Source: an uncultured bacterium
GTDB lineage: Bacteria > Fidelibacterota > Marinisomatia > Marinisomatales > UBA1611
Direction of reading: 5' to 3'
NCBI GenBank assembly: GCA_943788175.1
Contig: CALSPG010000010.1
Span: forward strand, 1-64,000
DNA length: 64,000 nt
Shown in pieces: positions 5,323-55,431 of the stretch. Made by a program: the position numbers and the translations under genes. The notes under the pieces are model-generated. The model searched no databases. It saw only the letters and a program-made list of their open reading frames with translations, and was not told the DNA's origin. Within the stretch, counting starts at the first letter, position 1; each line of letters opens with the position of its first letter.

Positions 5323-5367
5323 TAAAATGAATTATTTTAGCCTGAAAATATAGTTATTTTTTTAAAA

Positions 5368-6306: not shown

Positions 6307-6313
6307 AACTATA

Positions 6314-9300: not shown

Positions 9301-9856
9301 ATAATGCAGCTTTACAGTTAAGCGTATCAAAGACCGTTTCAATCAAAAAAAGATCGACTCCTCCATCTACTAACCCAAGAGCTTGTTCAGCATAAGATTC
9401 TTTTAAAGTATCAAAATCTATATTACGATAACCCGGGTTATTAACATCTGGACTAAGGGATGCAGTTCTATTAGTTGGACCTATAGCTCCTGCAACAAAT
9501 CTGGGTGTGTCTGTATATTTAACCGCCTGAGATTTTGCAATCTGAGCGGAAGATTTGTTTAGTTCATATGAAAATTTCTCAAGATTATAATCTTTTTGCG
9601 AAATCGAATTTGCGCTAAATGTATTTGTTTCAATTATATCTGCTCCAGCATCTAAATATGACTTATGAATTTCAGAAATAATATCTGGTCTAGTGATTGA
9701 TAAAACTTCGTTATTGCCTTTAATGTCACTTTGATGATCTTTGAATTGAGATCCTCTAAAATCCACTTCTTCAAGTTTATAGGATTGTACCATCGTACCC
9801 ATGGCACCATCAATGACTAATATTTTTCTATTAAAAATTTCTTTAATTTTTTCCAT
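6314..9856 (-). CDS. metH: Cobalamin-dependent methionine synthase
   Basis: [30 protein letters not shown] (B12 motif DxHxxG) and [12 protein letters not shown]; 1180 aa. Confidence 0.98.
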
Positions 9857-39291: not shown

Positions 39292-41442
39292 ATGATTAAA
39301 AACCCAAACTACCTATTATTACTTCTATTAGTTATAGTAGGCTGTTCGAAAAAAAATGAAAGAGGCGGTAAAATGAACAGACTCGGAGAATCTCAAAGTC
39401 CTTATTTACTTCAACACAAAAATAACCCCGTTGATTGGTACCCTTGGAGTGAAGATGCTTTCAATAAGGCAAAAAAACAAAACAAACCGATTTTTCTATC
39501 CATTGGATATTCAACTTGTCATTGGTGTCATGTTATGGAACATGAATCTTTTGAAGATAATGAAGTCGCTAAACTGATGAATGATAATTTTATTTCAATC
39601 AAAGTCGATCGTGAAGAAATGCCAGAAATTGACCATCTTTACATGTCAGTTTGTCAAGCGATGACTGGCAGAGGTGGATGGCCATTGACGATTGTAATGA
39701 CACCGGAGAAAGAACCTTTTTTCGCAGGAACTTACTTCCCTAAAAAAGGTAACAACAACCAGCCTGGCATGATGGAACTCATTCCATCTTTAATGAATGC
39801 CTGGAATAATAAACAAGATGATATAAAAAAAACAATTGAACAAGTAAATAACTACTTAATAAGGTCAAATAATTACGAAGGCAGTAAGCAGATAAATGAA
39901 GAAACAATTAAAAATGCATTTGTGAACTTTAGCAAAAGATTTGATAATGAGTTTGGCGGTTTCGGGGACTCGCCGAAGTTTCCATCTCCTCACAACCTCA
40001 TTTTTTTACTTCGCTATTATAAAACTTATGGTGATACGATTGCAAAAAACATGGCCATTGAAACACTTCAGCATATGAGGGCTGGAGGAATTTTTGATCA
40101 TATCGGATATGGTTTCCATCGTTATGCTACAGACAAACGCTGGTTTCTACCTCACTTTGAAAAAATGCTCTATGACCAAGCCATGATTTCAATGGCATAC
40201 TTAGAAGCTTTTAAAGCGACAAAAGATAAAAGTCTAGCAAAAACCACTGAGGATATTTTTACATATGTAATTCGAGATATGATGAAAAAAAATGGAGGTT
40301 TTTATTCAGCTGAAGATGCAGATAGTGAAGGTGAGGAAGGCAAATTTTACATTTGGACGGATAAAGAAATAAATCATGTCTTAGGCAAAGAAAAAGGAGA
40401 AATTTTTCAAAAAGTATATGGAATAAGAAGAGAAGGAAATTTTATCGATGAAGCATCAGGTCGTGCAATGCCTGGGAACATACCTTTTTTAAAGTCAAGT
40501 TTACCTGCATTTGCAAAATTAGAGAACCTAGATATAAATGAACTGTCTAAATCAATTGATGAAAGTAGAGAGCTTTTATTTATTGAAAGAGAAAAAAGAA
40601 TTCACCCTCTAAAAGATGATAAGATATTAACAGATTGGAATGGGCTAATGATTGCTGCCATGGCAAAAGGCGGAAAAATTTTAAAAAAGCCTGTTTACAT
40701 AGATGCTGCCATTAAATCTGCTGATTTCATTATTAAAAATTTGAGAGATAGTGACGGAAAACTCAAAAAAAGGTATAGAAATAATCAGGCTGGATTACAA
40801 CCACATATAGATGACTATGCATTTTTTATTTGGGGTATTCTAGAACTATATGAAGCAACATTCGAAACTCGCTTTCTAATGTCTGCTTTAGAATTATCAA
40901 AAATCATGGTTGATGATTTTTATGATGAAAAAAAGGGCGGGTTTTTTATTGGCCCAAATGACGGGGAAAAACTAATTATTAGAGCCAAAGATAGCTATGA
41001 TGGAGCTATTCCTTCGGGCAATGCAGTTGCAGCAATGAATTGTATAAAATTAAGTAAGTATACTGGTGACTTGAAGTGGGAAAAAATCGCATTCAAAACA
41101 ATTAAAGCTTTTTCAAACAAAATTAACCAAGCTCCTTCAGCTCATGCTTCAATGTTAAGTTCATTTATGTTCGGAACAAAAAATCCAAAAGAAATAGTCG
41201 TTGTGGGCAAAGAGCTGAATGGCGAAGTAATTGATAAAATTAAACAGCTTCAAAGTAATTATAACCCCCATACTATTTATATATTTAAATCATCAAATGG
41301 TGACTCTGATTTGGACAATATTGCACCCTGGACTAAAACACACCATTCAATAAATAATAAAACAACTTATTATATTTGTGAGAATTTTTCCTGCAAAATG
41401 CCCACAACTGAAATTAAAACAGCTTTGAATTATCTTGATTAA
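39292..41442 (+). CDS. YyaL/SSP411-family thioredoxin-domain protein
   Basis: NRL...[50 protein letters not shown] and [11 protein letters not shown]. The N-terminal IVGC may be a lipobox. Confidence 0.92.
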
Positions 41443-41500
41443 TTATCTTGAATATATTTTTTCAAATTTTAATTATTAGTGATACATTGCAAGGCTGCAT

Positions 41501-42793
41501 ATGAAAAATCTAGCATTACATTGGAAAATCATCATAGGATTAGTTTTAGGGCTAATATATGGAATAATAAGCGCATCTAATGGTTGGGGTACATTTACCA
41601 CCAATTGGATTGCTCCTTTTGGCACAATATTTATTAATTTGCTAAAACTCATAGCAGTTCCATTAGTATTTGCTTCCTTAGTATTAGGTGTAGCCTCACT
41701 ATCAGATACTAAAAAACTATCAAGGATAGGTGGAAAAACAATTTTAATATATTTATCTACTACATTGATATCTGTTATAATTGGACTTTTTCTAGTGAAT
41801 TCTTTAAAGCCTGGGAACCAGATTCCAGAACAGATGAAAATTGAACTCCAAGATACTTATAAAAAAAACCTGGAGTCAAAAACTGATAATGCTGAAAAAG
41901 TGAAAAAAAGAGGTCCTTTAAAACCGCTTGTTGACATGGTCCCAAATAATATTGTTTTTTCAGCATCAAATAATAGAAATATGCTACAGATTGTTTTTGT
42001 AGCAATTCTAGTAGGCATCGGACTTATTCAAATACCAAAGAATAAATCAAAAGAGTTTTTAGGTTTTTTTGAGGGTCTAAACGAAGTAGTTCTTAAAGTA
42101 ATTGATATAATTATGCTTATGGCACCTTTAGGAGTTTTTGCACTTATTTCCCAAACAATTAATAAGGTAGTTGGCGATAACATCAGCCAGGTAATAGAAC
42201 TCATCAGTGCATTAGGATTCTATATGTTCACGTTAACATTAGGTCTCTTTTTACATGTTATTATTACTTATCTATCGCTGTTAAAAATTTATTCTAGAAT
42301 GCCCATAGAAAAATTTTTTAAAGGCATAGCACCTGCTCAATTATTAGCATTTTCTACAAGCTCTAGTGGAGCCACATTGCCAATAACCATGGAAAGATGC
42401 GAAGAGGAGCTCGGCGTATCTGAGGAGGTATCATCTTTTGTCTTGCCTCTTGGCGCAACCATAAACATGGATGGAACAGCACAGTATCAAGCTGTAGCAG
42501 CAGTATTTATTTCTCAGGCACTAGGTATGGATTTATCATTAACGGATCAAGTCACGATTGTTTTGACAACAGTTTTAGCCTCAATTGGTACAGCAGCGGT
42601 ACCAGCAGCAGGTATTATTATGTTAATTATTATACTAGAATCAGTAGGAGTTCCAAGTGCTGGTGTTGCTCTTATTCTAGGCGTAGATAGAATTTTAGAC
42701 ATGATTAGAACTACCGTAAATGTAACTGGAGATGCAGCTGTTGCGGTTTCAGTAGCAAGTAGCGAAAAGCAATTAAAATCATATAGTAAATAA
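41501..42793 (+). CDS. Dicarboxylate/amino acid:cation symporter (GltP/DctA family)
   Basis: AFSTSSSGATLP, LPLGATINMDG and DRILDMIRTTVNVTGD. Confidence 0.95.
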   Translation: MKNLALHWKIIIGLVLGLIYGIISASNGWGTFTTNWIAPFGTIFINLLKLIAVPLVFASLVLGVASLSDTKKLSRIGGKTILIYLSTTLISVIIGLFLVNSLKPGNQIPEQMKIELQDTYKKNLESKTDNAEKVKKRGPLKPLVDMVPNNIVFSASNNRNMLQIVFVAILVGIGLIQIPKNKSKEFLGFFEGLNEVVLKVIDIIMLMAPLGVFALISQTINKVVGDNISQVIELISALGFYMFTLTLGLFLHVIITYLSLLKIYSRMPIEKFFKGIAPAQLLAFSTSSSGATLPITMERCEEELGVSEEVSSFVLPLGATINMDGTAQYQAVAAVFISQALGMDLSLTDQVTIVLTTVLASIGTAAVPAAGIIMLIIILESVGVPSAGVALILGVDRILDMIRTTVNVTGDAAVAVSVASSEKQLKSYSK

Positions 42794-42844
42794 TGTTTTT
42801 TATAAAGCATAAAGGGAATAATTTCCATGATAATTAAAAAAATA

Positions 42845-43019
42845 ATTTGGGCGGGTTCTGTTAATTCCGGATCGACAATTATATAATTAGGAGGCTGTAC
42901 TTCGTTTTCAAAAAACAGGCCTTTCCAAATTTTAATTTGGATCAAGGAAGTTTGCTAAAAGCGGGAGGCCACCACCGTTCTTTAAACTAAGAAGGGTCCT
43001 GAAAACTGCCTGCCCATAT
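42845..43019 (+). ncRNA. ssrS: Probable 6S RNA
   Basis: ~170 nt GC-enriched rod. Closing stem UGGGCGGG (42848-55)/CCUGCCCA (43009-16); GGAUC/GGUCC and GGAGGC/GCCACC helices flank an A/U-rich central bubble; apical hairpin UCCAAAUU/AAUUUGGA. Motif order GAUCGACA...GGAGGC...GGCCACCACC...GGGUCC resembles known 6S RNAs. Confidence 0.7.
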
Positions 43020-43029
43020 TTCTAAAAAT

Positions 43030-44193
43030 ATGAATAATAATAATAATAATAATAAAAGAAATAGAATTCCGAGAGGCTATCTTCCTGAAGATTCTGATAG
43101 ACGTCTAGATTGGCTCAAGAATGAACATGATTTTGAATTAAAAAACCTGCCACCTAATGAAACTGAAGAGTTAAAAGGTATTATAGAAAACCATGTCGGT
43201 TTTATGCAAATGCCAATGGCAATTGCTGGACCAGCAATCATTGATGGTAAATATGCTAAAGGTGAGTTTGCAATACCTTTATGTACAATTGAAGGTAGTT
43301 TAGCGGCATCAATGAATCGCGGTCTTTATGCATCCTCTTTATGCGGTGGAATGAAGGTAAAACACTTTCGTCAAGAGCTTTCAAGATCACCAATTTTTAT
43401 TTTTGATGATTTAAAAAAGAGTGATAAATTTCAAAACTGGGTAAATGAGCACTTAGATAAAATCAAAAAAGCAGCGCAATCTACCACACAATACGGTAAA
43501 GTGATTCGAATTGATCAATATGCAATTCAAAATTATGTTTTATTAGATTTTATTCTTGATACTGGGAATGCTGCCGGGCAAAACATGGTAACTCTAGCCA
43601 CAAATGTTGCTTGTGAATATATTAGACAAGAAACGGGACATAAATTTTTTCTTGATTCAAATTTAGCCAGCGATAAAAAAGCATCTTCTAGGAACATGAT
43701 ACTCGGCAGAGGTCACGGTGTTATTGCAGAAACGCACATAACAAAATCCGTTATGTCTAGGGTCCTTAATGTTGATCCCGATTTTGTTATAGAAAATTGG
43801 ACTTACTTTCCTATTGTATCAGCGATGGCGGGAACCCTTGGAAATGCCATCCATGCTTCAAACGCTCTGACAGCAATTTACATTGCAACGGGTCAAGATA
43901 CTGCCTGCGTTGCAGAAAACTCTGTTGGACATTTTACAGTGGAAAAAGTTGACGACGGTATTACTTGGAGATTAACCTTACCATCAATGACTGTTGGCAC
44001 AGTTGGTGGCGGAACTAGATTAAATCAACAACAACAAAACTTACAACTTTTAGGCTGCGACAGTAGTGAGCATTCATCTAGAAAGCTTGCTGAAATCATA
44101 GCTGCAGCTGCTTTAGGTCTAGAAATTTCATTAGGATCAGCAATCATGTCCCATACATGGACAAGTGCGCATATGAAATACGGTAGAAAATAA
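43030..44193 (+). CDS. Class I-like HMG-CoA reductase homologue
   Basis: ENHVG, PLCTIEGSLAASMNRG, LSRSP, TGNAAGQNM, SDKK, ATGQD, GTVGGGT and C-terminal SAHMKYGR. Confidence 0.9.
   Translation: MNNNNNNNKRNRIPRGYLPEDSDRRLDWLKNEHDFELKNLPPNETEELKGIIENHVGFMQMPMAIAGPAIIDGKYAKGEFAIPLCTIEGSLAASMNRGLYASSLCGGMKVKHFRQELSRSPIFIFDDLKKSDKFQNWVNEHLDKIKKAAQSTTQYGKVIRIDQYAIQNYVLLDFILDTGNAAGQNMVTLATNVACEYIRQETGHKFFLDSNLASDKKASSRNMILGRGHGVIAETHITKSVMSRVLNVDPDFVIENWTYFPIVSAMAGTLGNAIHASNALTAIYIATGQDTACVAENSVGHFTVEKVDDGITWRLTLPSMTVGTVGGGTRLNQQQQNLQLLGCDSSEHSSRKLAEIIAAAALGLEISLGSAIMSHTWTSAHMKYGRK
43033..43053 (+). repeat. (AAT)7 trinucleotide repeat encoding an N-terminal poly-Asn
   Basis: atg followed by aat x7. 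Confidence 0.9.
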
Positions 44194-44204
44194 AAAACAC
44201 TACT

Positions 44205-44930
44205 ATGAATGTACTTGATAACCCCAAGTATTCTCATTTATTAAAACGCCAGCCTTTTTATCATCGTATTGGTAAGACATTGCTATATAACTGGGCCAAG
44301 TTTATTTTTTTTTGGTACACACCACTGAGTGTTTTTGGCAAAGAGAATATTCCCAATGATTCTTTTATTTTTTGCAGCAATCATAATGCTCATTTGGATG
44401 TCATTGCATTATCTCTTTCAGCAAATAAAAACTTTAATAATGTTGGAATGCTTGCAGCTAAAGACTATTGGTTCGATAACTGGCTTCGAAGAAACATAAT
44501 GAAACCGGTAATGAACCTCATTCCTCTTGGTCGAAAATCACACCTTGGAAAAGATATAACCTTTGAGCAAACTCTAGAATTATCAAATTGTTTTATGAAT
44601 GTTGATAAGCGTTGTATTATTATATTTCCTGAGGGAACTAGAGGTCAACCAGATGTATTAAAACGATTTCGAAAAGGTCCAGCACGATTATCAATAGGAA
44701 CAGGAAAACCAATCCTTCCTGCCGTTGTCATGGGTTCAGGAAAATCTTGGCCAAAAGGAAAATTTATTTTTAAACCTGGTAAAATTCATGTTTACATTCT
44801 AAAGCCTATAGACCCTAATTCATTCACTATAAGAGACAAAAATAATGAAAAAGACCTTTTCAAAACTGCAGAGGCCATGACAAAAGAATTAGAAGAAAAA
44901 ATTACGAGTAAATTGGAAGAATTAACATGA
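44205..44930 (+). CDS. PlsC-family (lyso)phospholipid / putative DHAP acyltransferase
   Basis: NHNAHLD (HX4D), AAKDYWF and FPEGTRG. Confidence 0.9.
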   Translation: MNVLDNPKYSHLLKRQPFYHRIGKTLLYNWAKFIFFWYTPLSVFGKENIPNDSFIFCSNHNAHLDVIALSLSANKNFNNVGMLAAKDYWFDNWLRRNIMKPVMNLIPLGRKSHLGKDITFEQTLELSNCFMNVDKRCIIIFPEGTRGQPDVLKRFRKGPARLSIGTGKPILPAVVMGSGKSWPKGKFIFKPGKIHVYILKPIDPNSFTIRDKNNEKDLFKTAEAMTKELEEKITSKLEELT

Positions 44931-46699
44931 GTAGTAGTAAAAAAGAAAAGTTTTATGGAGTAAACGATGAACTCTGGGGCCATAAATGGGGTTTTAAAGA
45001 TTCATCTTTTATAATAAATGATGACAATTCTATCACATTTACTGGCGCAAGGTATGATGGAATATCTGGAGAAAAATTGCCTTATCTAATCCCTTTTGTT
45101 ACCAAAGTTTTAGATACAGAGATAAATAAGGAACCTTACTTTAAAGAAGTTAAAAAAAAGTTTGTTTCTGAACGGATATTAAACAGAGCGTTTATTGATG
45201 CAATTGAATCTTCTTTTGCAGAAGATAAACTTTCATTAAGTGATGATGAGAGAATTCTTCACAGCCATGGCCAAAATTCTCCAGATGAAGTTTTCAAAGT
45301 ATTGTATGACAAACTTGATAAGTTCACGGATCTTATTATTTATGTTGAAACTGAGGAAGACGTTGTTTTATTAATAGACCTCGCAAAAAAACATAATGTG
45401 TGTCTTGTCCCATTTGGTGGCGGAACTAATGTCACAAATGCACTCCAGTTACCAAAGAATGAAACTAGAATGATAGTTACTGTTGACACAAGGAGATTAA
45501 ATAGAATTATTTCTATAGATCAAAAAAATCTTCTAGTTGAAGTAGAGGCTGGTATTACAGGTAAAGAATTAGAAAAGCAACTTCAAGATAAAGGGTATAC
45601 TACTGGCCACCAACCAGATAGTATTGAGCTATCTACTGTAGGTGGCTGGATATCTACTAATGCCGCAGGTATGAAAAAAAACCGATATGGAAATATTGAA
45701 GATATTGTTCAAAACCTAGTTATGGTCACTCCAAATGGGATAATAAATCAAATTGAGCCACTGGTGAGGTCCTCAATTGGTATAAAAACACAAAACATTC
45801 TTTTCGGTTCTGAAGGCAATCTAGGTATAATAACAAAAGCCACAATGAAAATTCATAGATTACCAGAATGTAGTGACTATGAATCGGTTGTCATGAAGGA
45901 TTGGAATACTGGACTGGATTTTATGTACGAGCTCGCTCACTCAAATACAATACCTGCTAGTGCAAGAATGCTTGATAGTTTACACTATCAATTTGGAAGC
46001 GCATTAAAACCAGAAAAAACAAATTTCGGAAAATTCAAAAGTAAAATTCAAAAGTTAGCATTTAAAATTAAAAATTTCGATGCAGATCATTTTGTTGCAG
46101 CAGTCTTCAAACTAGAAGGAACATTTTCCGAAGTAGAATACCAAAGAAAAAATATAAAAAATCTTGCAAGAAAGTATAATGGATTGCTTGGTGGTCGCAA
46201 GGAAGGAAAAGTTGGTTACAACATAACAATGGTTATAGCATACATACGCGAATTTTTTGTACCACAGGGGATTCTTGGCGAAACTTTAGAAACAGCAGTC
46301 CCATGGTCAAAAGTAAATCAAGTAAAAGACGAAGCAAATAAACTACTAACAAAATTGCACAAAGAATATAATCTTCCAGGAAAACCATTTTTTTGTTCAA
46401 GAGTTTCAAAAATTTATCACACTGGGGTTTGTATGTATAATACAATGGGAATTAATGTTAGAGGAGTTAAAAACCCTGAAAAAGTTTTTAGTGATATTGA
46501 GCATAAAATTAGAGCTTGTTTTATTAAAAATGGCGGTTCAATCTCGCATCATCACGGAGTAGGAAAATTGAGGAAAGAGTTTATGCCCGAGACCATTTCA
46601 ATTGGTAGTATTCAGGTGATACAGAATATTAAAAAATCACAAGACCCAGATAACATATTTGGAATTGATAACAATATTGTAAACAAGATTCAGGATTAA
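44927..46699 (+). CDS. Alkyl-dihydroxyacetonephosphate synthase (AGPS/ADS) homologue, FAD-linked
   Basis: PFGGGTNV, GHQPDSIELSTVGGWISTNAAGMKKNRYGNIED, GSEGNLGIIT, PASARMLD, ETAVPW, GVCMY, GGSISHHHGVGKLR and DPDNIFG match the eukaryotic AGPS motif set. Confidence 0.9.
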   Translation: MSSSKKEKFYGVNDELWGHKWGFKDSSFIINDDNSITFTGARYDGISGEKLPYLIPFVTKVLDTEINKEPYFKEVKKKFVSERILNRAFIDAIESSFAEDKLSLSDDERILHSHGQNSPDEVFKVLYDKLDKFTDLIIYVETEEDVVLLIDLAKKHNVCLVPFGGGTNVTNALQLPKNETRMIVTVDTRRLNRIISIDQKNLLVEVEAGITGKELEKQLQDKGYTTGHQPDSIELSTVGGWISTNAAGMKKNRYGNIEDIVQNLVMVTPNGIINQIEPLVRSSIGIKTQNILFGSEGNLGIITKATMKIHRLPECSDYESVVMKDWNTGLDFMYELAHSNTIPASARMLDSLHYQFGSALKPEKTNFGKFKSKIQKLAFKIKNFDADHFVAAVFKLEGTFSEVEYQRKNIKNLARKYNGLLGGRKEGKVGYNITMVIAYIREFFVPQGILGETLETAVPWSKVNQVKDEANKLLTKLHKEYNLPGKPFFCSRVSKIYHTGVCMYNTMGINVRGVKNPEKVFSDIEHKIRACFIKNGGSISHHHGVGKLRKEFMPETISIGSIQVIQNIKKSQDPDNIFGIDNNIVNKIQD

Positions 46700-46702
46700 T
46701 CT

Positions 46703-47503
46703 TTGGACCTTGTTAATAAAGTATGCGTAATAACTGGAGCGTCTTCCGGTATTGGAAAATCTTTAGCAACAAAACTTTCCCTAAGAGGTGCTAAAGTTGT
46801 TTTAGCCGCAAGAAGAAACTCTAAACTTGAAGAAATAAGACAAGGCATTGAAAAAGAAGGCGGTAAATGCTTTGGTGTGAAAACAGATATTACTAAAAAA
46901 TTAGAATGTAAGAATCTCATTGATGAGACAATTAATCGATATAAAAAAATAGATATATTAATTCTAGCTGCTGGTGTAAGTATGTGGTCCCCATTTGAAG
47001 AAATATCTGATATTTCTTTTTTTGATGACCTTATGGCCACTAATTATACTGGTGCAGTCCATTGCGTTCATGCAGCCTTACCTAGCCTTATATCAACAAA
47101 TGGTATGATTGTTTCCTGCTCAACTGCACAAGCGATTGTAGGATTTACAAACCATTCTGGTTATGCTGCCTCAAAACATGCTTTGCACGGTTTTTTAGAT
47201 ACTTTAGAAATGGAACTTAATGGTAAAGTAAAATTTTTAGAAACTTGTTTGGGTTGGATTAAAGGAACAAATATGCGATCTAATGCATTTGGTCCTAATG
47301 GTAAAAAAATGGGCGAAACAAAAAGAAAACACAGTAGTAATTCTGTTGATCTAGATGTTTGTATTGAAAAAATAATTTCTGCTATAGTAATTGAAAAAGA
47401 GAAAGTTTACATTCCTTGGAAGCTGAAATTGATTCCATTTCTTGATTTATTTTTTGGAAAATTTCTAAGAAACAAAATAAATAGAGCAGTACACTCTGAA
47501 TAA
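46703..47503 (+). CDS. Classical SDR oxidoreductase (NADP-type), putative acyl/alkyl-DHAP reductase
   Basis: TGASSGIG, AARR, TNYTG and YAASK; 3 nt after the AGPS stop. Confidence 0.85.
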   Translation: MDLVNKVCVITGASSGIGKSLATKLSLRGAKVVLAARRNSKLEEIRQGIEKEGGKCFGVKTDITKKLECKNLIDETINRYKKIDILILAAGVSMWSPFEEISDISFFDDLMATNYTGAVHCVHAALPSLISTNGMIVSCSTAQAIVGFTNHSGYAASKHALHGFLDTLEMELNGKVKFLETCLGWIKGTNMRSNAFGPNGKKMGETKRKHSSNSVDLDVCIEKIISAIVIEKEKVYIPWKLKLIPFLDLFFGKFLRNKINRAVHSE

Positions 47504-47526: not shown

Positions 47527-48672
47527 TTACTTTACCATTTTTAAATATTTAGATATAATTCTCAACATTATTTCGTCTGTACCACCACCTATTGAGTGGA
47601 GTCGTCCATCTCGGTATAGTTTTGCTGCTTGATTTTCCCAAGTGAATCCCATTCCACCATAGTACTGAATACACGTATCAGCAACCTCTCGAATTAATCT
47701 ACCACTCTTTAATTTTGCCATTGATGCCAATAAAGTAACATCCTCGCCTCTGATGTAATTTTCACACGCCCTATATATCAAAGACCTTAAAGCTTCTACT
47801 TCTGTTTTTAACTCAGATAAGCGAAATTGAATTGCTTGATTATCAATTATATTTTTTCCAAATGCTTTTCTTTCGCTACAATATTCTATTGTGTAATCTA
47901 TACAATTATCCATTGAAACAAGTATGCTTGCTGCTAGAAAGAGCCTTTCTTCTTGAAACTGCTCCATTTGCATCTTGAAACCATCCCCTTCAATTCCAAT
48001 TCTATATTTTTGAGGAACACATACATTATCAAAATAGACTGGTGCTGTATCTGAAGATCTAAAACCTAGTTTGTCAATTTTATCACCAATACTTACTCCT
48101 TTTGTATTTGACGGTATTATAATTAAGGACTTATTTATATGAGGTTTATCATCACTTGTATTAACTAGCGTACAAAAATAGTCAGCTTGAGTTGCATTTG
48201 TTATCCACATTTTTTGACCATTAATTATGTAATCCTTTCCTCTTTTAATAGCATTAGTTTTTAGCGATGATACATCTGAACCACCACCAACTTCACTTAT
48301 AGCAACAGAAGTAACTTTTTCACCTTTAATTGCAGGAACTAAAAACTCCTTTTTTAATTCTTCAGAACCATACCGCTCAAGGGCTGGTGTTGCCATATCA
48401 GTTTGCACACCTATTGCTGTAACTACACCACAATCGTCAGCGTGTCCTAAGGCCTCAGCAAATATTAGACCATAACTATAATCTAAACCCATGCCGCCAA
48501 AATCTTCACTCTTGGTTATACCAAGCAAATCCAGTTTACCCATTTTTTTAAACAAATCATGAGCAGGAAAAAAACCATTTTGTTCCCATTCATCGGCAAA
48601 AGGTTTGATCTCTTTTTTTACAAATTCTTTTACCGTATTAAACAATGCTTTTTTTTCTTCATTCAAATACAT
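47527..48672 (-). CDS. Acyl-CoA dehydrogenase, citronellyl-CoA dehydrogenase (AtuD)-like
   Basis: GVQTDMATPAL, SEVGGGSDV, INGQKMWITN, QFQEER and SIGGGTDEIM; in an atuA-atuC context. Confidence 0.88.
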   Translation of the reverse strand: MYLNEEKKALFNTVKEFVKKEIKPFADEWEQNGFFPAHDLFKKMGKLDLLGITKSEDFGGMGLDYSYGLIFAEALGHADDCGVVTAIGVQTDMATPALERYGSEELKKEFLVPAIKGEKVTSVAISEVGGGSDVSSLKTNAIKRGKDYIINGQKMWITNATQADYFCTLVNTSDDKPHINKSLIIIPSNTKGVSIGDKIDKLGFRSSDTAPVYFDNVCVPQKYRIGIEGDGFKMQMEQFQEERLFLAASILVSMDNCIDYTIEYCSERKAFGKNIIDNQAIQFRLSELKTEVEALRSLIYRACENYIRGEDVTLLASMAKLKSGRLIREVADTCIQYYGGMGFTWENQAAKLYRDGRLHSIGGGTDEIMLRIISKYLKMVK

Positions 48673-48697
48673 TTATTATCCTTTATTGTGATATAAA

Positions 48698-49498
48698 TTA
48701 TTTTTTAATTGTCCACGATGGTTTACGTTTATTAAAAAAAGAGTCAAATCCTTCTCTTCCATCATTACTAATAATACTATCAGAAAATAAATCAGCTGCT
48801 CTCCGGGAATCAATATTTTGGTTTAAGGACAATATTTTTTTAGTAGTCGCTATTGCAGCAGGCGAGCAGTTGATGACATCAGATTTAAAATCGTTTATTT
48901 TTTTTTCAAGTGCCTCATTATTATTTGCAACAAAATCAACCAATCCAATTTTACTTGCCTCCAACCCATCAATTATAGTTCCCAAAAGCATCATTTTTCT
49001 CGCTTTTGAATAGCCTAATTTATTTATTACATATTTTGAAATTTGTGATGGCGTTAGACCTATTTTAGTTTCAGTGAGACCAAATTTTGTATTTTCCAAA
49101 GATATAACAAAATCTGAAGCACACGCGATCCCAAAACCGCCAGCAAGTGCAAACCCCTCCGTAACCGAAACGACAATTTGAGGCGCTTGATTTATCACTT
49201 TAAGTAATTTCCCAATGGTCATACTAAAATCATATGCTTGATTTTTAGCTTCTTTTCCTGATTCAGTTATTTTTTTCATTTTTTTTAAATCTGCTCCAGC
49301 ACAAAATACACCACCATCACCCCTTAAAAAAATTGCACGAATATCTTTATTATCCTTTGCAACGTCAAAGACAATTAATAGTTCTTCGACTAAACTTTCT
49401 TTAAGGGAATTCCTGTTTACCGCATTATTAAACAGTATTTCTAGCCAACCATTTTTATTATTTAATATAAGATCTTGTGTTTTTGGAAATTGATTCAT
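48698..49498 (-). CDS. Enoyl-CoA hydratase, isohexenylglutaconyl/methylglutaconyl-CoA hydratase (AtuE/LiuC)-like
   Basis: FCAGADL, ALAGGFGIACASD, FGLTETKIGLTP and EGFDSFFNKRKPSW. Confidence 0.85.
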   Translation of the reverse strand: MNQFPKTQDLILNNKNGWLEILFNNAVNRNSLKESLVEELLIVFDVAKDNKDIRAIFLRGDGGVFCAGADLKKMKKITESGKEAKNQAYDFSMTIGKLLKVINQAPQIVVSVTEGFALAGGFGIACASDFVISLENTKFGLTETKIGLTPSQISKYVINKLGYSKARKMMLLGTIIDGLEASKIGLVDFVANNNEALEKKINDFKSDVINCSPAAIATTKKILSLNQNIDSRRAADLFSDSIISNDGREGFDSFFNKRKPSWTIKK

Positions 49499-49535
49499 TC
49501 TGTATCCATAATTTAAAAAAGTCTGCCTTAAGTAA

Positions 49536-51158
49536 TTATAACCTAGCGATACCAAAACTATTAGATTTGGTAGTGCGGTTTAACGTTTCCCAAAATGTAT
49601 CTAATAAAAAACCGAGGATTTCTCTTGTTTTGACTGGTTCAATAATACCATAGTCTAATCCTCTACCAGAAGTGGTAAAAGCATCAGATTGAGCATTATA
49701 TTTTTCAGCAATTTTAATTATTTGGTTTTTCAATTTTTCATTATCTATCTCTACACCTTTTCTTTTAGCAGAACTAATCATAACCTGCTCCATGGTTTTT
49801 GCAGCTTGTTCTCCTCCCATTACACCAATCATTGCATTAGGCCACGAAAATATAAAATCAGGCTTATAAGCATACCCACACATAGCATAATTTCCTGCTC
49901 CAAAACTAGCACCTATATTAAAAGTTATTTTAGGAACTCTTACATTTGATACCGCTTGAATTAACTTTGCTCCATGTTTAATCATACCAAGTTGCTCAGA
50001 TTGTTTTCCAACCATAAACCCAGTTGTATTACTTAAAAATATTAATGGGATATTTGACTGATCACATAATTGAATGAATTGAGCTGCTTTTGTAGCACCG
50101 TTTGGGTCAATGGGGCCATTATTACCTATTACCCCACAGGGATGACCATAAATTTTTGTTTGGATACAGACAGTGGAAACACCATAGAGAGGCTTAAAAT
50201 CAATAAAATCAGAACCGTCAACAAGCCTTGCCACAACCTCTCGAACATCGTAAGGGATTTTGTAATCAGCAGAGACAACCCCAATTAATTCATTCACATC
50301 ATAAATTGGATTATCAAACGAGATGTTTTCACGACTCTTTAAACTAGAATTCCAATCAATTTTATCAATTACTTCTCGTGTGATTTTTATGGCATGTTCA
50401 TCATCTTCAGCAAGATATTCTACTAAACCTGTAATTCTTGCATGCATTTCGCTGCCACCTAACTCATCTTTATCTGCGATCTGTCCAGTCGCTGCTTTTA
50501 GCAATGCTGGTCCAGCTAATGCAGCCATTCCATTTTTTTTTACACCTACTACGTAGTCACTCATACCAGGTTGATATGCACCACCTGCCGTAGACAGACC
50601 ATGCAATATTGCAATTGTAGGAATTCCTGCAGCACTAAGTTTTGCAAGTCCATAAAACATACCTCCAGTATTAGACCAAAATTCAACTGTATAGTTCATT
50701 AAATTAATTCCAGCACTTTCAACAAGGTGAATAAATGGTAATTTTTGTTTTAAGGATATTTCTAAGCAACCTAATGCTTTATCAATCGATTTTGCGGTCA
50801 AGGCGCCCGCATTTATTCCACTATCATCAACAAAGACCATACTTCGGACACCACTTATAAATCCAATGCCAGCAATTACACTAGCTCCGGAGATGCTAGT
50901 ATCTTCATTATTATCATCTACTAAATAACTAATCATATTAAATAATTCTATAAAAGACGTATTAGGATCTAATAATGCTGAAAGTCTTTCTCTAGGAGTA
51001 AGCTGCCCTCTTTCAATAAATTTTTCTCTTCGTCTTTCTGACACCTTTTCAGCTCGTCCTTTTATAGAATTCATTTTTTTAATTAACGAACCAAACTGAT
51101 TTTTATTATTTATAAAATTCTCGGATTCAGAATCTATTTTAGTTTTAAATATTGTCAT
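49536..51158 (-). CDS. Acyl-CoA carboxylase carboxyltransferase subunit, geranyl-CoA carboxylase (AtuC)-like
   Basis: LTPRER..LLDP, LVESAG, STAGGAYQPGMSDY, NTTGFMVG and GASFGAGNYAMCG. Confidence 0.9.
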   Translation of the reverse strand: MTIFKTKIDSESENFINNKNQFGSLIKKMNSIKGRAEKVSERRREKFIERGQLTPRERLSALLDPNTSFIELFNMISYLVDDNNEDTSISGASVIAGIGFISGVRSMVFVDDSGINAGALTAKSIDKALGCLEISLKQKLPFIHLVESAGINLMNYTVEFWSNTGGMFYGLAKLSAAGIPTIAILHGLSTAGGAYQPGMSDYVVGVKKNGMAALAGPALLKAATGQIADKDELGGSEMHARITGLVEYLAEDDEHAIKITREVIDKIDWNSSLKSRENISFDNPIYDVNELIGVVSADYKIPYDVREVVARLVDGSDFIDFKPLYGVSTVCIQTKIYGHPCGVIGNNGPIDPNGATKAAQFIQLCDQSNIPLIFLSNTTGFMVGKQSEQLGMIKHGAKLIQAVSNVRVPKITFNIGASFGAGNYAMCGYAYKPDFIFSWPNAMIGVMGGEQAAKTMEQVMISSAKRKGVEIDNEKLKNQIIKIAEKYNAQSDAFTTSGRGLDYGIIEPVKTREILGFLLDTFWETLNRTTKSNSFGIARL

Positions 51159-51179
51159 TCACTTTACCTATTTTATCGA

Positions 51180-52970
51180 TCAAAAATTATCTTTTGTTAT
51201 TTTTTTATAAATTAATTCTGGAATCGCAATCTTTGCATTTAAAATGTATTGAGCATAAGCCTTTCCCTGGGGGTCAAGAAGTAAGCTCGACATTCCACCA
51301 CCTCCTAGACTATTTTTTACTAAAAAGTTCAATCCATTTATTTTTGGTAGCTCCCAGCAAACAACAGATTTTTCAGTACAATTTTTAAAAAAAGAAGATA
51401 TTTTTTCCGTAGTCAAAGTTTTTTTTATATATGAAAAATATTCAGGCTCTCTAGAAATAATACCAACGTTTACATGATTACCTTTATCCCCACTTCTAGC
51501 ATATGCCAAATTTATTAAACGAGTTTCAAAACTATAATCGCTAGTATTACCACCTAACTTCGCAGGCGTTGTATTTGAAGAGATATTTAATTTATCAGAA
51601 TTTTCAATTTCAACGGATTCTACGGTATTATTAAAATCAATCTGGCATTTAACTTTCTTTTTATCTAACATAAAAGAAAATAAATTAATTGACGGAGAAA
51701 TTGATGGCCTTCCACCTAAATAGTTCATTATACCCGGAGCCATCCCAGTAGCCGCTTGAGCTATTTCCCTAGATAATATAATAAGAGCTTCTTTTTCTTC
51801 ATGCCTTGCAGCAACTCTTAATACCACTTCATTGCTACCTTTGAAATTACTATGATCATTGATATTTTCAGATCCTATTACAGAAACATTAATATCTTTA
51901 TATGCAGAAAAATTTTGTTCAATAAAAATATCTTTAGTTCTTTTTAAAATGGAATTACCAACAGAGTATGCTTTTTTTACGGCTTTCGGACCACCTATAA
52001 CTAAAGTTGCAACAGTTTTAAATCCGTCTTGGTATGTTGCAGACACTTTATAGAAGTTTGAAGGCCTGTTGCCTTTCACTCCTTTTACCGAAACGACATC
52101 ATTACCCTTATCTTTAATGGAGACATTTGTGAAATCACATATCACATCGGGAAGGAGGTAACTACTCGGATTTCCAATTTCGTACAAAAACTGTTCTGCA
52201 ACTGTTCCAAAATTGACAATTCCTCCAGTATTTTTAGGCTTTGTAACAATAAAGTTACCATTTTTTTCTACTTCTATAATTGGAAACCCAATATTATCAA
52301 ACCTTTCTACAGATTCCCAATCAGTAAAGTTTCCACCAGTGCATTGAGCTCCACACTCAATAATGTGCCCTGCTAGACTACCACTAGCAAGGAGGTCATA
52401 GTCATCAGTCTTCCAATCAAATTCATACATTAAAGGACCAAGTACTAAAGCACTATCAACGCATCTGCCAGTAATTACTATATCAGCATCAAGCTCTAAG
52501 GCTGCCTTTATTCCTGGAGCACCTAGATACGCATTCACGCTTAATAAGTTTTCTGGAAGGGACTCATTTGTATCAATTTCTTTGATATTACTTGAGCGTA
52601 AATCTTTTTCAAGATGTAAAAGATCATCACCTTCAAGTATTATAATTTTTAAATCAACAGCTTCTTTTTTTGCTTCTTCAAGCAATGCTTTTCTACACGC
52701 TTCAAGATTCACTCCACCAGCATTACTTATAATTTTGATGTTCTTTTCTTTAATTTTTTTTATTAAAGGACCAACGTGGTTTATAAAATCTTTAGCATAA
52801 CCATGACTATTATTTTTTAATTTTGCACCTGCCAAAATTGACATTGAAACCTCTGCTAAGTAGTCAAAAACTAAATAATTAATGTTGCCCTTATTTACTA
52901 ATTGAGGGGCAGCAATATCGGTGTCACCCCAAAACCCTGATGCACAACCTATTTTAACCTTTTTTTTCAA
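51180..52970 (-). CDS. atuA: Acyclic terpene utilisation AtuA family protein
   Basis: IGCASGFWGD, FDYLAEV, SNAGGVN, NAYLG, VITGRCVD, GHIIECGAQCTGGNF, ARSGDKGN and DPQGK. Confidence 0.92.
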   Translation of the reverse strand: MKKKVKIGCASGFWGDTDIAAPQLVNKGNINYLVFDYLAEVSMSILAGAKLKNNSHGYAKDFINHVGPLIKKIKEKNIKIISNAGGVNLEACRKALLEEAKKEAVDLKIIILEGDDLLHLEKDLRSSNIKEIDTNESLPENLLSVNAYLGAPGIKAALELDADIVITGRCVDSALVLGPLMYEFDWKTDDYDLLASGSLAGHIIECGAQCTGGNFTDWESVERFDNIGFPIIEVEKNGNFIVTKPKNTGGIVNFGTVAEQFLYEIGNPSSYLLPDVICDFTNVSIKDKGNDVVSVKGVKGNRPSNFYKVSATYQDGFKTVATLVIGGPKAVKKAYSVGNSILKRTKDIFIEQNFSAYKDINVSVIGSENINDHSNFKGSNEVVLRVAARHEEKEALIILSREIAQAATGMAPGIMNYLGGRPSISPSINLFSFMLDKKKVKCQIDFNNTVESVEIENSDKLNISSNTTPAKLGGNTSDYSFETRLINLAYARSGDKGNHVNVGIISREPEYFSYIKKTLTTEKISSFFKNCTEKSVVCWELPKINGLNFLVKNSLGGGGMSSLLLDPQGKAYAQYILNAKIAIPELIYKKITKDNF

Positions 52971-53110
52971 ATACTATAACCTTTCAAACATTGATTCATT
53001 AATTATACAAAAAAAATAAGCACTCAAACATGATAAAATGGAATTCGTTAAATATCTGTAATTATCTATCATTTAAATATATTTTCAGTATAAATAAACT
53101 AATAAAATAT

Positions 53111-54389
53111 TTAAGAAAATAGTTCATTGATATCTTTTACTCCATTAAAAAAAGAAGGCACTAAAAAGCGATTACCAAAGGAATCAAATAAGTCATTAGA
53201 TTTTATTTTAAATTTATCTATACCATAATTTTCAATATATGAAAAAACACCTGGTTTTGGAAACCCCCAGCCGTATACACTGCCTACATTAGCTTCAGCT
53301 AGAGAATTAAGAACCCCCTGATCATAACAATTAAGAGCTTCAATTACTTGAGAAAATATCAAACGCTCGCACATTCGGTTTTTTGAAATTTCTTTACGAT
53401 TTGATGTGATTTTTGTACCAAGGCCAGACCATAATTTTTTAACTCCATTTTCAGGATAGTCGTAAGAACCCTTTTTTGTTGATTCTTCCTAATCGACCAA
53501 ATTCATTAATCATCAAACTAAGTACTTCATCCCATGGCTGTTCTAAAAGTTTTGATTCTCCACTATCAGTATTTTTTCGTTCTTGATTTCGAATGTTAAA
53601 AGCAACCTTTAAGCTAATCTCATCAAGGACAGCTAATGGCCCAACAGGGAAGCCGACCTCTTTACCTGCTGATTCTATAGCATAAGCATCATTACCTTCA
53701 TGAAGTAAAGCCATCCCTTCCAATGCATATTTCATAAAAACACGGGTAGTAAAGAAACCAGGAGCATCATTTACAACTACAGGTATTTTTTTAATTGTTT
53801 TAACAAAGTCTAATGTTCTAGCCAACGTATTAGAACTTGTAAAATCACTTTTAATAATTTCAACAAGTTTCATCTTATGGACAGGAGAAAAAAAATGGAT
53901 GCCAATAAAATTTTCTGGTCGAACTGATACTTTTGCCAATTTAGATATTGGAATGGTAGATGTGTTTGAGGAAAAAATGCTATTATTTTCTATGATCTTT
54001 TCAGCAGCGATAGTTACGTCTCTTTTTAGAGCTGTATCTTCATAAACTGCTTCAATCACTAAATCACAGCCTTTTAAATCAGATACCTCAGTTGATACTT
54101 TTATACTTTCTAAACACTTTTCCATTTGACTATTTGAAAAGAAGTTTTGCCTAACATCATTTTTAAAAATTTCTTCAATTTTTGAAAACGCAGTTAATAC
54201 ATTTTTCTTTGAGTTATCTATTAAAATAACTTTAAACCCGTAATAAGATGAAACATAAGCAATTCCATGCCCCATTAGTCCAGAACCAATAATTCCTATC
54301 TTTTTAAATTTTGATTTTAAGGATCCTGATGTTCTTAAAGATTTAATTTTAATCTCCTTTAAGAAATTTGAAAAAGTATCTTCTGTCAT
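53111..54389 (-). CDS. 3-hydroxyacyl-CoA dehydrogenase (FadJ/FadB C-terminal part only), frameshift at ~53470
   Basis: GSGLMGHG, VIEAVYE, SNTSTIPI, HFFSP...LVE and GFPVGPL; the second C-terminal domain (ANVGSVYGWGFP) is in ORF 53111-53374. Confidence 0.85.
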
Positions 54390-54423
54390 GAAATGTTTAA
54401 ATTATTAAAACCACTAATTAATT

Positions 54424-55431
54424 TCATTTACTTTTCCCATGTTTTAAAACAATCCTACCGATTTGCTCCCCATTGAGCATCTTTTTTATCTCGGGAAACA
54501 GCTCATCAATAAGAACTGTTTTATGCAGTGACTTTAGATTGTTTAACTTCCAATCTGACCCAAATAATTTCCATATTTTAGATTTTTTATTAATTGAAGT
54601 TTTCGCAGAATCAATACCCACCAATTGATTAGCTCTCAGAATAAAGGGATACACATTTGCATCAAAATTTGGACTACTTACATTGCCACAGCATGCAATA
54701 ATCCCACCATATTTCATGCTAACAATTAAAGCCGATAAAATAGAACCTCCAACAACATCAATTGCAAAACTCCAGGTACTTTTGCTTAGTGGTTTTTTTG
54801 TTGAATCAAGAAGATCACTAACTGAGACAACTTCGTTAGCTCCAATCATCATTAAATATTCTTTCGAATCTATGCTACTTGTTATTGCAGTTACATCGGC
54901 TCCCATCATATTTAGAAGCTTAATTGCGATAGTGCCGACTCCTCCAGTAGCCCCTGATACAACAACCTTTTTACCTGAAATATCATTTTTTTTTATAATC
55001 ATTTCAATGCATAGCCCAGCTGTAAGACCAGCCGTTCCAAGAATCATTGATTCTAGGCTTTGAAGTCCCTTTGGGAGGCGACAAACCCATTCTTTTGGCA
55101 CACGAATATATTCTCCAAAGCCACCAGCGGTATTCATTCCAAGGTCATATCCTGAAACAATAACTTTATCTCCAACATTAAATTGCGAGACAGATGATTT
55201 TTTAACAATACCAACAGCATCAATTCCAGGCGTGTGTGGATAGTTTTTTGAAACACCTCTGTTGCCAGAGAAAGAAAGAGCATCTTTATAATTTAAAGAG
55301 CTATGAGATACCTTAATTAACAAATCATTTATAGGAAGATCAACGATTTTTCTTTGTTTAATACTTTGGCTAAATGATCCTGTTGTATTTTTTTCAATCA
55401 CTACAGCTCTAAATGTATTTTTATTTATCAA
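54424..55431 (-). CDS. acuI: YhdH/AcuI-family acryloyl-CoA reductase (MDR)
   Basis: SSLNYKDAL, PGIDAVG, GTAGLTA, SGATGGVG and PFILR...GIDS. Confidence 0.85.
   Translation of the reverse strand: MINKNTFRAVVIEKNTTGSFSQSIKQRKIVDLPINDLLIKVSHSSLNYKDALSFSGNRGVSKNYPHTPGIDAVGIVKKSSVSQFNVGDKVIVSGYDLGMNTAGGFGEYIRVPKEWVCRLPKGLQSLESMILGTAGLTAGLCIEMIIKKNDISGKKVVVSGATGGVGTIAIKLLNMMGADVTAITSSIDSKEYLMMIGANEVVSVSDLLDSTKKPLSKSTWSFAIDVVGGSILSALIVSMKYGGIIACCGNVSSPNFDANVYPFILRANQLVGIDSAKTSINKKSKIWKLFGSDWKLNNLKSLHKTVLIDELFPEIKKMLNGEQIGRIVLKHGKSK

Follow-up and report, generated by a model that had tools for sequence, protein, structure and literature searches.

A conserved four-gene cassette in Marinimicrobia as a likely operon for ether-lipid synthesis by the AGPS route

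Here, we analyzed a cassette of four genes in a 64,000-nt stretch of contig CALSPG010000010.1, which comes from an uncultured bacterium. "The window" denotes this whole stretch, and all coordinates of the cassette and its neighbors are window positions. The genes encode, in this order, a reductase with the fold of HMG-CoA reductase (HMGR) that resembles the fatty acyl-CoA reductases named FcrA, a small acyltransferase (AT), an orthologue of AGPS, and a short-chain dehydrogenase/reductase (SDR). Judged by the families of its proteins, the cassette is likely an ether-lipid operon for the de novo synthesis of 1-O-alkyl-sn-glycerol-3-phosphate by the AGPS route. The evidence consists of the close kinship of the third protein to animal AGPS, the FcrA-type active-site pocket of the first, and the conservation of the gene order across loci and genomes. 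The features of the locus are as follows:

42794..43029, + strand: intergenic region of 236 nt, presumed promoter region (open reading frame (ORF) map and sequence)
43030..44193, + strand: fcrA-like gene, 387 aa (ORF map; PF00368)
44205..44930, + strand: gene for a small acyltransferase (AT) of the PlsC/AGPAT family, 241 aa (ORF map; PF01553)
44927..46699, + strand: gene for the orthologue of AGPS (alkylglycerone-phosphate synthase, EC 2.5.1.26), 590 aa (ORF map; PF01565 and PF02913; PDB 4bby)
46703..47503, + strand: gene for a classical NADP-type SDR, 266 aa, TTG start (ORF map; PF00106)

Coupling and conservation of the cassette

The four genes follow each other closely on the + strand. The FcrA and AT genes are joined by TAA-11 nt-ATG, the AT and AGPS genes share a 4-nt ATGA overlap, and the AGPS and SDR genes meet at TAA-TCT-TTG with a 3-nt gap. 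An original prediction made from the sequence had listed four coupled genes with gaps of 11, -4 and 3 nt and had named their products as an HMGR homologue, an acyltransferase with an HX4D motif, AGPS and an SDR; the ORF map and junction sequences bear out the former statement, and the Pfam families and motifs described below the latter. Gene order and coupling are directly seen, and the four genes most likely form one operon. Apart from a short + strand island (39292-47503) whose last genes are those of the cassette, the window is read on the - strand, and the gene 3' of the cassette (47527-48672, - strand) is convergent. A sigma-70 scan was uninformative, with 24 promoter-like sites compared with 20.9 expected from shuffles, and a terminator scan returned one terminator-like site, which lies inside the AGPS gene on the - strand.

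The window genome, 92% complete, consists of 12 contigs with 2.27 Mb in total. In species genomes, the nearest AGPS loci carry the titles Candidatus Marinimicrobia or Neomarinimicrobiota, a phylum that NCBI now calls Fidelibacterota, and marine metagenomes of many studies contain DNA near-identical to the window. Among species genomes, 600 stretches were matched, 571 of which encode an AGPS relative, and the best 80 of these were kept. The complete series FcrA-AT-AGPS-SDR, in order and on one strand, is present in 30 of these 80 loci, and in 28 of the 63 that have room for all neighbors. Of the complete loci, 20 are among the 22 titled Fidelibacterota and one is titled Lentisphaeria; the other 9 belong to the 14 loci that carry no phylum label. 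The identity of their AGPS to that of the window goes down to 49%. With one exception (L009, discussed below), the incomplete Marinimicrobia-type loci stop at contig edges.

A sample of 201 genomes of the phylum, in which related genomes are not independent counts, gave a similar result. AGPS was matched at E 1e-60 or better in 28 genomes, in 25 of them at an identity of at least 47%; the three others, at 29-31%, are probably other flavoenzymes. FcrA was matched in 24 genomes (23 at 50% identity or more, one at 41%). Both proteins occur in 23 genomes, and in 22 of these their genes lie on the same contig and strand, 0.73-0.87 kb apart. Single genomes depart from this pattern: the AGPS and FcrA genes of G167 lie at two contig ends, AGPS of G188 lies at a contig edge, and G136 has only a distant FcrA-like gene. 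Cassette carriers belong to five of the 30 families of the sample, a patchy distribution.

A metagenome scan seeded with the nearest non-Marinimicrobia relatives of FcrA yielded 29 loci with an FcrA of at least 46% identity, of which 27 contain the AT, 20 AGPS and 16 the SDR. The two loci that lack the AT have no more than 619 nt of room, and those that lack AGPS or the SDR are likewise short of room. More distant FcrA-like genes (35-43% identity) are followed by an AT or AGPS gene in none of 51 loci. As the arrangement is conserved across loci and genomes, it is not due to chance, and the synteny that the original prediction had proposed to look for in genomes and metagenome-assembled genomes (MAGs) proved real.

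Assignment of the four proteins

On the basis of its sequence relatives, the product of gene 3 is almost certainly an AGPS. It consists of FAD_binding_4 (PF01565, E 1.2e-37) and FAD-oxidase_C (PF02913, E 2.9e-25) domains, and its residues 19-582 align to residues 94-656 of guinea-pig AGPS (4bby; E 3.5e-127, 428.6 bits). Dictyostelium AGPS (2uuu) is matched with E 1e-78 and 268.6 bits. The residues R347, Y504 and H541-H543 align to R419, Y578 and the HHH loop (His615-617) of the guinea-pig enzyme, and they are invariant in 17 of 17 AGPS orthologues, so that the full motif set attributed to this homologue is in place. The catalytic roles of Arg419, Tyr578 and His615-617, and their numbering, we take to be those given by Nenci et al (2012). 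The mutant AGPS chains 4bc7 and 4bca are also among the matches, and 4bca (Y-to-F) differs at the aligned tyrosine.

These comparisons bear on an alternative, by which the operon would produce free fatty alcohols, wax esters or another neutral lipid and gene 3 would encode an FAD-linked 2-hydroxyacid oxidase or dehydrogenase. FcrA was first found in wax-ester synthesis (PMC11948995), and gene 3 has weak matches to the GlcD and LctD family models. The GlcD score of 149.1 bits is, however, far under the cut-off of 567.9, and the best match to lactate, glycolate and 2-hydroxyglutarate dehydrogenases has an E of 2.8e-24 and no match more than 88.9 bits, compared with the 428.6 bits to AGPS. The protein also keeps the AGPS-specific Arg, Tyr and HHH residues together with the N-terminal region, and a wax synthase (WS/DGAT) was not found in the window genome by a search whose control was weak. 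We consider neutral-lipid synthesis very improbable, and retain AGPS as the function of gene 3.

Ten of the 29 metagenome loci (L093-L102) contain a second version of the cassette, in which the third gene, where there is room for it (five loci), is 28-31% identical to the window AGPS. In L095 (6879-8672), this gene is an AGPS as well: it scores 474.4 bits against the Dictyostelium enzyme and 300.3 bits against that of guinea pig, the reverse of the preference of the window protein. By these scores, FcrA cassettes carry both the metazoan-like and the Dictyostelium-like type of AGPS known from eukaryotes, a hint that AGPS passed from such bacteria to eukaryotes on more than one occasion.

FcrA proteins are fatty acyl-CoA reductases derived from class I HMGR, of which Pb-FcrA has been assayed (Grossi et al., ISME J 2025; PMC11948995). 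They retain Glu559, Lys691, Asp767 and His866, and they differ from HMGR in an acidic residue in place of Ser684, in the loss of the conserved HMG-binding Lys, which forms a salt bridge to HMG in HMGR, and in a bulky residue in place of Leu862 (PMC11948995). In gene 1, PF00368 (HMG-CoA_red, E 2.8e-105) is the sole Pfam family of the 387-aa protein, which reaches 285.9 bits against the HMGR (NADPH) model TIGR00533 and thus stays below its cut-off of 441.8. An HMMER alignment with human HMGR (1dq8) places E88, K216, D290 and H381 at the catalytic positions E559, K691, D767 and H866, and shows three substitutions in the pocket (S684 to D209, K735 to Y259 and L862 to W377). The replacement of the HMG-binding Lys is described as "generally small" in FcrA (PMC11948995); in gene 1 it is Tyr. 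The claim that the HMGR homologue acts as a fatty acyl-CoA reductase finds support in this published signature, all of whose changes occur in the protein.

The same pattern prevails among the relatives of gene 1. A search matched 259 proteins, and after removal of 11 partial cores the query was aligned with 248 full-core relatives. The first pocket position is acidic in 216 rows (E in 182, D in 34), the second is variable, and the third is aromatic in 239 (F in 227, W in 7, Y in 5), whereas the canonical S-K-L combination occurs in only six. In a quick FastTree phylogeny of 256 rows, these six form one side of a branch with 100% support; for one of them, the sources give the name Methanohalophilus HMG-CoA reductase. 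The window protein is on the opposite side, nested by several nodes and part of a clade of 14 rows that has 100% support. Three proteins of ~510 aa with W at the third position (P0133, P0145 and P0154) contain PF25653 in addition to PF00368, which is the Lad-plus-core architecture of published FcrA. Taken together, the pocket, the family scores and the tree indicate that gene 1 very likely encodes an FcrA-type supplier of fatty alcohol and not an enzyme of mevalonate synthesis.

The opposite assignment would make gene 1 a genuine HMGR, working with HMG-CoA of an Atu/Liu-type cluster or in the mevalonate pathway, beside AGPS by accident. The strong PF00368 match, an archaeal HMGR (6hr7, E 9.2e-72) as the best solved relative, and the convergent acyl-CoA catabolic cluster that adjoins the cassette speak in its favor. 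Yet at three HMG-binding positions the protein has FcrA-like changes, among them the absence of the salt-bridging Lys, the score is below the NCBIfam HMGR cut-off, and Pb-FcrA does not reduce HMG-CoA (PMC11948995). Moreover, a diphosphomevalonate decarboxylase (TIGR01240) was not found in the 92%-complete window genome, which contains IspH of the methylerythritol phosphate route and a single PF00368 gene, gene 1 itself. The catabolic neighbors stay with the cassette in close relatives alone, but AT-AGPS-SDR persists in loci whose AGPS is as little as 49% identical. A mevalonate enzyme is thus the least probable of the readings considered, and we continue with gene 1 as an FcrA-type reductase.

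Several further features of gene 1, its relatives and the isoprenoid marker were observed. Seven AAT codons (43033-43053) encode a poly-Asn run at the start of gene 1, orthologues align from about residue 5-7, and 43021-43069 was passed over as a repeat in the read coverage; the true start, or the length of the run, may be variable. The only ispH found (G000:C6:229926-230745, - strand) is in two pieces in different frames (model positions 1-232 and 235-280), which points to a frameshift or an assembly error. Among the longer HMGR/FcrA-like proteins (P0005-P0124 and P0131), many are fused to the kinase-like domains PF01636 (APH) or PF02958 (EcKL), at least five to AMP-binding PF00501, and one to PilZ. 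From the kinase fusions, one may suspect that the product is phosphorylated or that another step follows, which we have not found described. Fusion to an AT (PF01553) was seen in none of the 120 longer FcrA-like proteins listed.

The AT encoded by gene 2 has PF01553 (Acyltransferase, E 2.2e-17) as its only Pfam match. Its HX4D motif reads N59-H60-N-A-H-L-D65, and H60 and D65 are invariant in an alignment of 17 sequences, the window AT and 16 Marinimicrobia-type orthologues, which keep all four AGPAT blocks (NHNxHxD, MNLIPxxR, FPEG(T/S)RG and PI(L/V)P). A profile built from this alignment gives 106-119 bits to the ATs adjacent to AGPS in cyanobacteria and in a MAG titled Rhizobium and to the AT domain of an ElbD-like protein from Poribacteria (105.9 bits for the latter), but only 38-60 bits to the three other PF01553 paralogues of the window genome. 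As the scores favor AGPS-adjacent ATs over the paralogues of the same genome, the AT belongs to an ether-lipid-associated AT group. The AT is not a member of the GNPAT family, but it may work like GNPAT. A role as acyltransferase of dihydroxyacetone phosphate (DHAP) is the assignment that we favor, by a modest degree. A complex prediction for AGPS and the AT, made with alignments of both, had a score of 0.00, which counts neither for nor against binding.

Gene 4 encodes a classical SDR (PF00106, adh_short, E 9e-46; PF01370 reaches only 4.3e-5) that scores 238.3 bits against NF004825, above the cut-off of 215. The motifs TGASSGIG (11-18), R37-R38 (AARR) after strand 2 and YAASK (154-158) match the earlier description as an NADP-type SDR, the cofactor preference being read from the motif by what we take to be a general rule for SDRs. 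The TTG start is supported by orthologues, which align from residue 1. A look-up in the ESM Atlas returned generic SDR clusters only. An SDR with 41-52% identity directly follows AGPS in 11 of 12 Acidobacteriota loci and in three Poribacteria-type loci, and no FcrA was found near these AGPS-SDR pairs. The presence of the SDR after AGPS without an FcrA nearby favors a step after AGPS, the reduction of alkyl-DHAP, over alcohol formation, and alkyl-DHAP reductase is accordingly a reasonably probable function for this protein.

Proposed pathway and its weighing

In the pathway that we propose, the FcrA-type enzyme would convert long-chain acyl-CoA and two NADPH into a fatty alcohol, while the small PlsC-type AT would form 1-acyl-DHAP from DHAP and an acyl donor. 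The AGPS flavoenzyme would then swap the acyl group for the fatty alcohol to give 1-O-alkyl-DHAP, whose ketone the SDR would reduce with NADPH to 1-O-alkyl-glycerol-3-phosphate (1-O-alkyl-G3P). Housekeeping PlsC and the CDP-diacylglycerol pathway could turn the latter into plasmanyl (alkyl-acyl) glycerolipids, the presumed final lipid. That the four genes stand for the four steps of ether-lipid synthesis, as the original prediction had it, is the best-supported explanation; for the DHAP specificity of the AT and the substrate of the SDR, it is what we infer. None of the steps needs O2, given the chemistry of AGPS, which fits a SAR406/Marinimicrobia organism of low-oxygen water. An O2-independent route also agrees with the report that Agps matches of Marinisomatota rank with the most abundant ones in the euxinic water of the Black Sea (PMC11868695). 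PF10520 (PEDS1/CarF) has no match in the window genome, nor in any control genome, and the FAR-type reductase family PF07993 has weak, generic matches (best E 6.2e-15) in the window genome and matches in 14 of 14 control genomes, so that its matches say little.

All four genes are covered by contigs that were assembled from metatranscriptome libraries, which belong to two studies. Some of these contigs span the FcrA/AT junction (X16 record 2, X18 record 19) or the AT/AGPS junction (X16 record 3, X18 record 20). For the AGPS/SDR junction, only a single long contig of X3 does so; of X16 record 7, fewer than 31 nt lie on the AGPS side, and bins without coverage carry no evidence. The X3 library also holds a 71-kb contig, so that carry-over of DNA is likely. 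These contigs lend weak support to expression of the genes, not to a single transcript.

A number of observations weigh against the proposed function. With regard to the genomic context, L009 has an AGPS 78% identical to that of the window (5254-7011) but none of the three partners despite room for them, and the 5.1-Mb genome bin of L009 contains no FcrA match; the locus is either a rearrangement or part of a chimeric bin. G196 likewise has AGPS but no FcrA, and none of the 23 Chloroflexota AGPS loci has an adjacent AT and SDR. In the RNA-library contigs, the flanking genes are covered like the cassette, which DNA carry-over may explain. At the protein level, gene 1 reads NAAGQN where HMGR reads DAMGMN (alignment with 1dq8), and a Pfam scan of gene 1 shows the core only, without the Lad N-terminal domain (PF25653) or an acyl carrier protein (ACP) domain, although Lad and ACP domains occur only in some FcrA and do not define them. 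The FcrA side of the tree is defined by the pocket signature and the Lad architecture, with neither Pb-FcrA nor the Natronomonas protein placed by name. The gene 1 protein found no match at E 1e-10 in five genomes behind AGPS loci (three Promineifilaceae/Leptofilum, Planktothrix and Poribacteria), so that the tree is not anchored on a close relative of the assayed Pb-FcrA. The nearest solved relatives of the SDR are 3-hydroxybutyrate dehydrogenases.

The remaining objections concern the AT, which at 241 aa lacks the large GNPAT/GPAT architecture and whose nearest solved relative is PlsC of T. maritima (5kym, E 1.8e-16), an acyltransferase of lysophosphatidic acid. In a tree of ATs, an open fork joins the AGPS-linked clades with one housekeeping paralogue, and the tree gives no proof of a single origin of AGPS-linked ATs. 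These features agree with a different role, in which the AT would acylate the sn-2 position of 1-O-alkyl-G3P and acyl-DHAP would come from another enzyme, such as a promiscuous G3P acyltransferase. The PlsC size, the four AGPAT blocks and the NCBIfam matches, which are of AGPAT type and all below cut-offs, point the same way. However, three other PF01553 proteins of the window genome, all with higher scores on the family model, could carry out sn-2 acylation, and AGPS absolutely needs acyl-DHAP, which by textbook knowledge ordinary bacterial lipid synthesis does not supply. Across phyla, the AT also adjoins AGPS or is fused to an alcohol-forming reductase, which mirrors the FAR+GNPAT-like fusions of Myxococcus and protists. 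An sn-2 acyltransferase therefore seems unlikely to us, and the AT is kept as the candidate DHAP acyltransferase.

The neighborhood of the cassette was also inspected. On its 5' side (39292-42793, + strand) lie genes for a DUF255/thioredoxin-domain protein (716 aa) and a sodium:dicarboxylate symporter family protein (430 aa), and + strand ORFs of like size, a match in size only, are found upstream of FcrA in several relatives, such as L004, L008, L029 and L032. On the 3' side (47527-55431, - strand) lie genes for an acyl-CoA dehydrogenase, an enoyl-CoA hydratase, a carboxyltransferase, AtuA (PF07287 with a ferredoxin-like domain), a 3-hydroxyacyl-CoA dehydrogenase and a Zn-alcohol dehydrogenase. 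From its families, this cluster looks like an Atu/Liu-type set for branched acyl-CoA catabolism; only its first genes adjoin the cassette, and only in close relatives. In L009, AGPS lies between a weak peptidase-S9-like ORF and unrelated ORFs.

Alcohol-forming modules and known systems

In other phyla, AGPS is accompanied by alcohol-forming modules of a different kind. The Poribacteria-type loci encode an ElbD-like protein of 1406-1407 aa directly before AGPS-SDR, with NAD_binding_4, Sterile, AMP-binding, PP-binding and Acyltransferase domains. In cyanobacteria, a protein with AMP-binding, PP-binding and NAD_binding_4 domains is followed by AT-AGPS-SDR; the module of Planktothrix (L063) adds an acyl-CoA dehydrogenase domain, and a gene for a CdsA-family cytidylyltransferase (8528-9469) follows the cluster. 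That three unrelated alcohol-forming modules occupy this one position argues, more strongly than any other indirect evidence, for a supply of fatty alcohol to AGPS by the first step of the cassette.

Based on these loci, one may tentatively regard AT-AGPS-SDR as a core that, with interchangeable alcohol modules, forms a general O2-independent bacterial route to 1-O-alkyl glycerolipids. The modules would then be FcrA in Marinimicrobia and an unplaced sister lineage, an ElbD-type fusion of a fatty acyl-CoA reductase (FAR) in Poribacteria, and a FAAL-ACP-reductase in cyanobacteria, an equally speculative series. It is conceivable, on the same footing, that what are called the "ElbD" and the "AGPS" route represent two sides of a single pathway present in many phyla.

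Individual AGPS loci show additional genes. In L067, a gene of the fatty-acid desaturase family (7776-8720) is located between AGPS and the SDR, and its product might act on the ether lipid. In L040, which is a Chloroflexota locus, a gene for a Lad-type FcrA lies upstream of AGPS at a distance of 2 kb. Nine Chloroflexota loci contain an ORF of 255-262 aa after AGPS, which was considered as a possible reductase and rejected: that of L044 (7822-8595) encodes a membrane-anchored Pro/Thr-rich protein, and the ORFs of L044 and L040 belong to no Pfam family.

Parts of this picture have been described. Bacterial AGPS homologues are known, as the original prediction stated; in M. xanthus, an operon encodes AGPS, a fusion of FAR and a GNPAT-like AT, and an NAD-dependent reductase (PMC9131029). 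FARAT fusions are known in protists, elbD and agps have been reported together in sponge-symbiont MAGs, and Agps homologues occur in 49 of 134 Black Sea Marinisomatota MAGs (PMC11868695). Grossi et al. suggest that some FcrA feed ether-lipid synthesis, and point out that fcrA of Coxiella has a PlsC-like gene next to it and that an AGPS gene lies at a distance of nine genes from Pb-fcrA (PMC11948995). The original prediction overstated the novelty of the HMGR-containing cassette, given the Myxococcus operon, the proposed link of FcrA to ether lipids, and the known Marinisomatota Agps. The coupled FcrA-AT-AGPS-SDR operon, its conservation in SAR406 and the interchangeable modules around AT-AGPS-SDR were not found in a literature search that lay outside the supplements of PMC11948995 and PMC11868695.

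Non-isoprenoid alkyl glycerol ethers, which serve as biomarkers, occur widely in marine sediments and water columns, but which bacteria produce them is poorly constrained. Few uncultured lineages of the dark and oxygen-poor ocean are as abundant as SAR406/Marinimicrobia. If the proposed function is true, SAR406 might turn out to be a major and hitherto unassigned source of the non-isoprenoid monoalkyl glycerol ethers in oxygen-poor ocean water, a possibility that we put forward with reserve. With its 4.5 kb, the cassette is compact, and it is both conserved and, judged by enzyme chemistry, O2-independent. It would extend the FcrA family from wax esters to membrane ether lipids, would present one pathway rebuilt with three unrelated alcohol-forming reductases, and may bear on the source of AGPS in eukaryotes.

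Of the known systems, the M. xanthus operon (MXAN_1676-1674) shares with the cassette the combination of AGPS, an alcohol-forming reductase, an AT and an NAD(P)-dependent reductase, and thus the logic of the peroxisomal pathway. Its AGPS orthologue is reported to be ~42% identical to the human protein, and deletion of MXAN_1676 lowered ether lipids only slightly (PMC9131029). The two operons differ in the fold of the alcohol-forming enzyme, which is that of HMGR in the window and the NAD_binding_4 "male sterility" FAR fold in Myxococcus, and in the architecture of reductase and AT, which are separate small proteins in the window but fused in Myxococcus. Furthermore, the last enzyme is a classical SDR (PF00106) in the window and an extended SDR of the epimerase/dehydratase family in Myxococcus, and the window has the order reductase-AT-AGPS-SDR in a Marinimicrobia host.

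With published FcrA, gene 1 shares the fold, the catalytic residues, the three pocket substitutions and its position on the same side of the HMGR/FcrA split, and here, too, the mevalonate marker was not found in the window genome. The window protein is unlike these in lacking the Lad/ACP domains, in the Tyr at the K735 position and in NAAGQN for DAMGMN. Its gene also heads an AT-AGPS-SDR operon, which the main text of Grossi et al. does not contain (PMC11948995).

ElbD-like proteins combine an alcohol-forming reductase with an AT domain, and in Poribacteria their gene is located directly before AGPS-SDR. In contrast to the cassette, ElbD of the elbA-E cluster is a single protein of ~1400 aa with AMP-binding and ACP domains and an FAR-type reductase, and the genetics of Myxococcus are reported to make ElbD largely independent of AGPS (PMC9131029). 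The earlier view of the cassette as distinct from myxobacterial ElbD needs correction in that the separation is not a clean one, since the window AT groups with the AT domain of the ElbD-like protein and this protein precedes AGPS-SDR in Poribacteria.

Finally, the eukaryotic peroxisomal route consists of FAR1/2, GNPAT, AGPS and an acyl/alkyl-DHAP reductase (Ayr1, DHRS7B/PexRAP). The cassette resembles it in its four predicted chemical steps and in AGPS, a true orthologue by its E of 3.5e-127 to the guinea-pig enzyme. AGPS is, however, the only orthologous component: the alcohol-forming reductase has a different fold, GNPAT of eukaryotes is large whereas the window AT is a 241-aa protein of the PlsC type, and the bacterial pathway would operate without an organelle.

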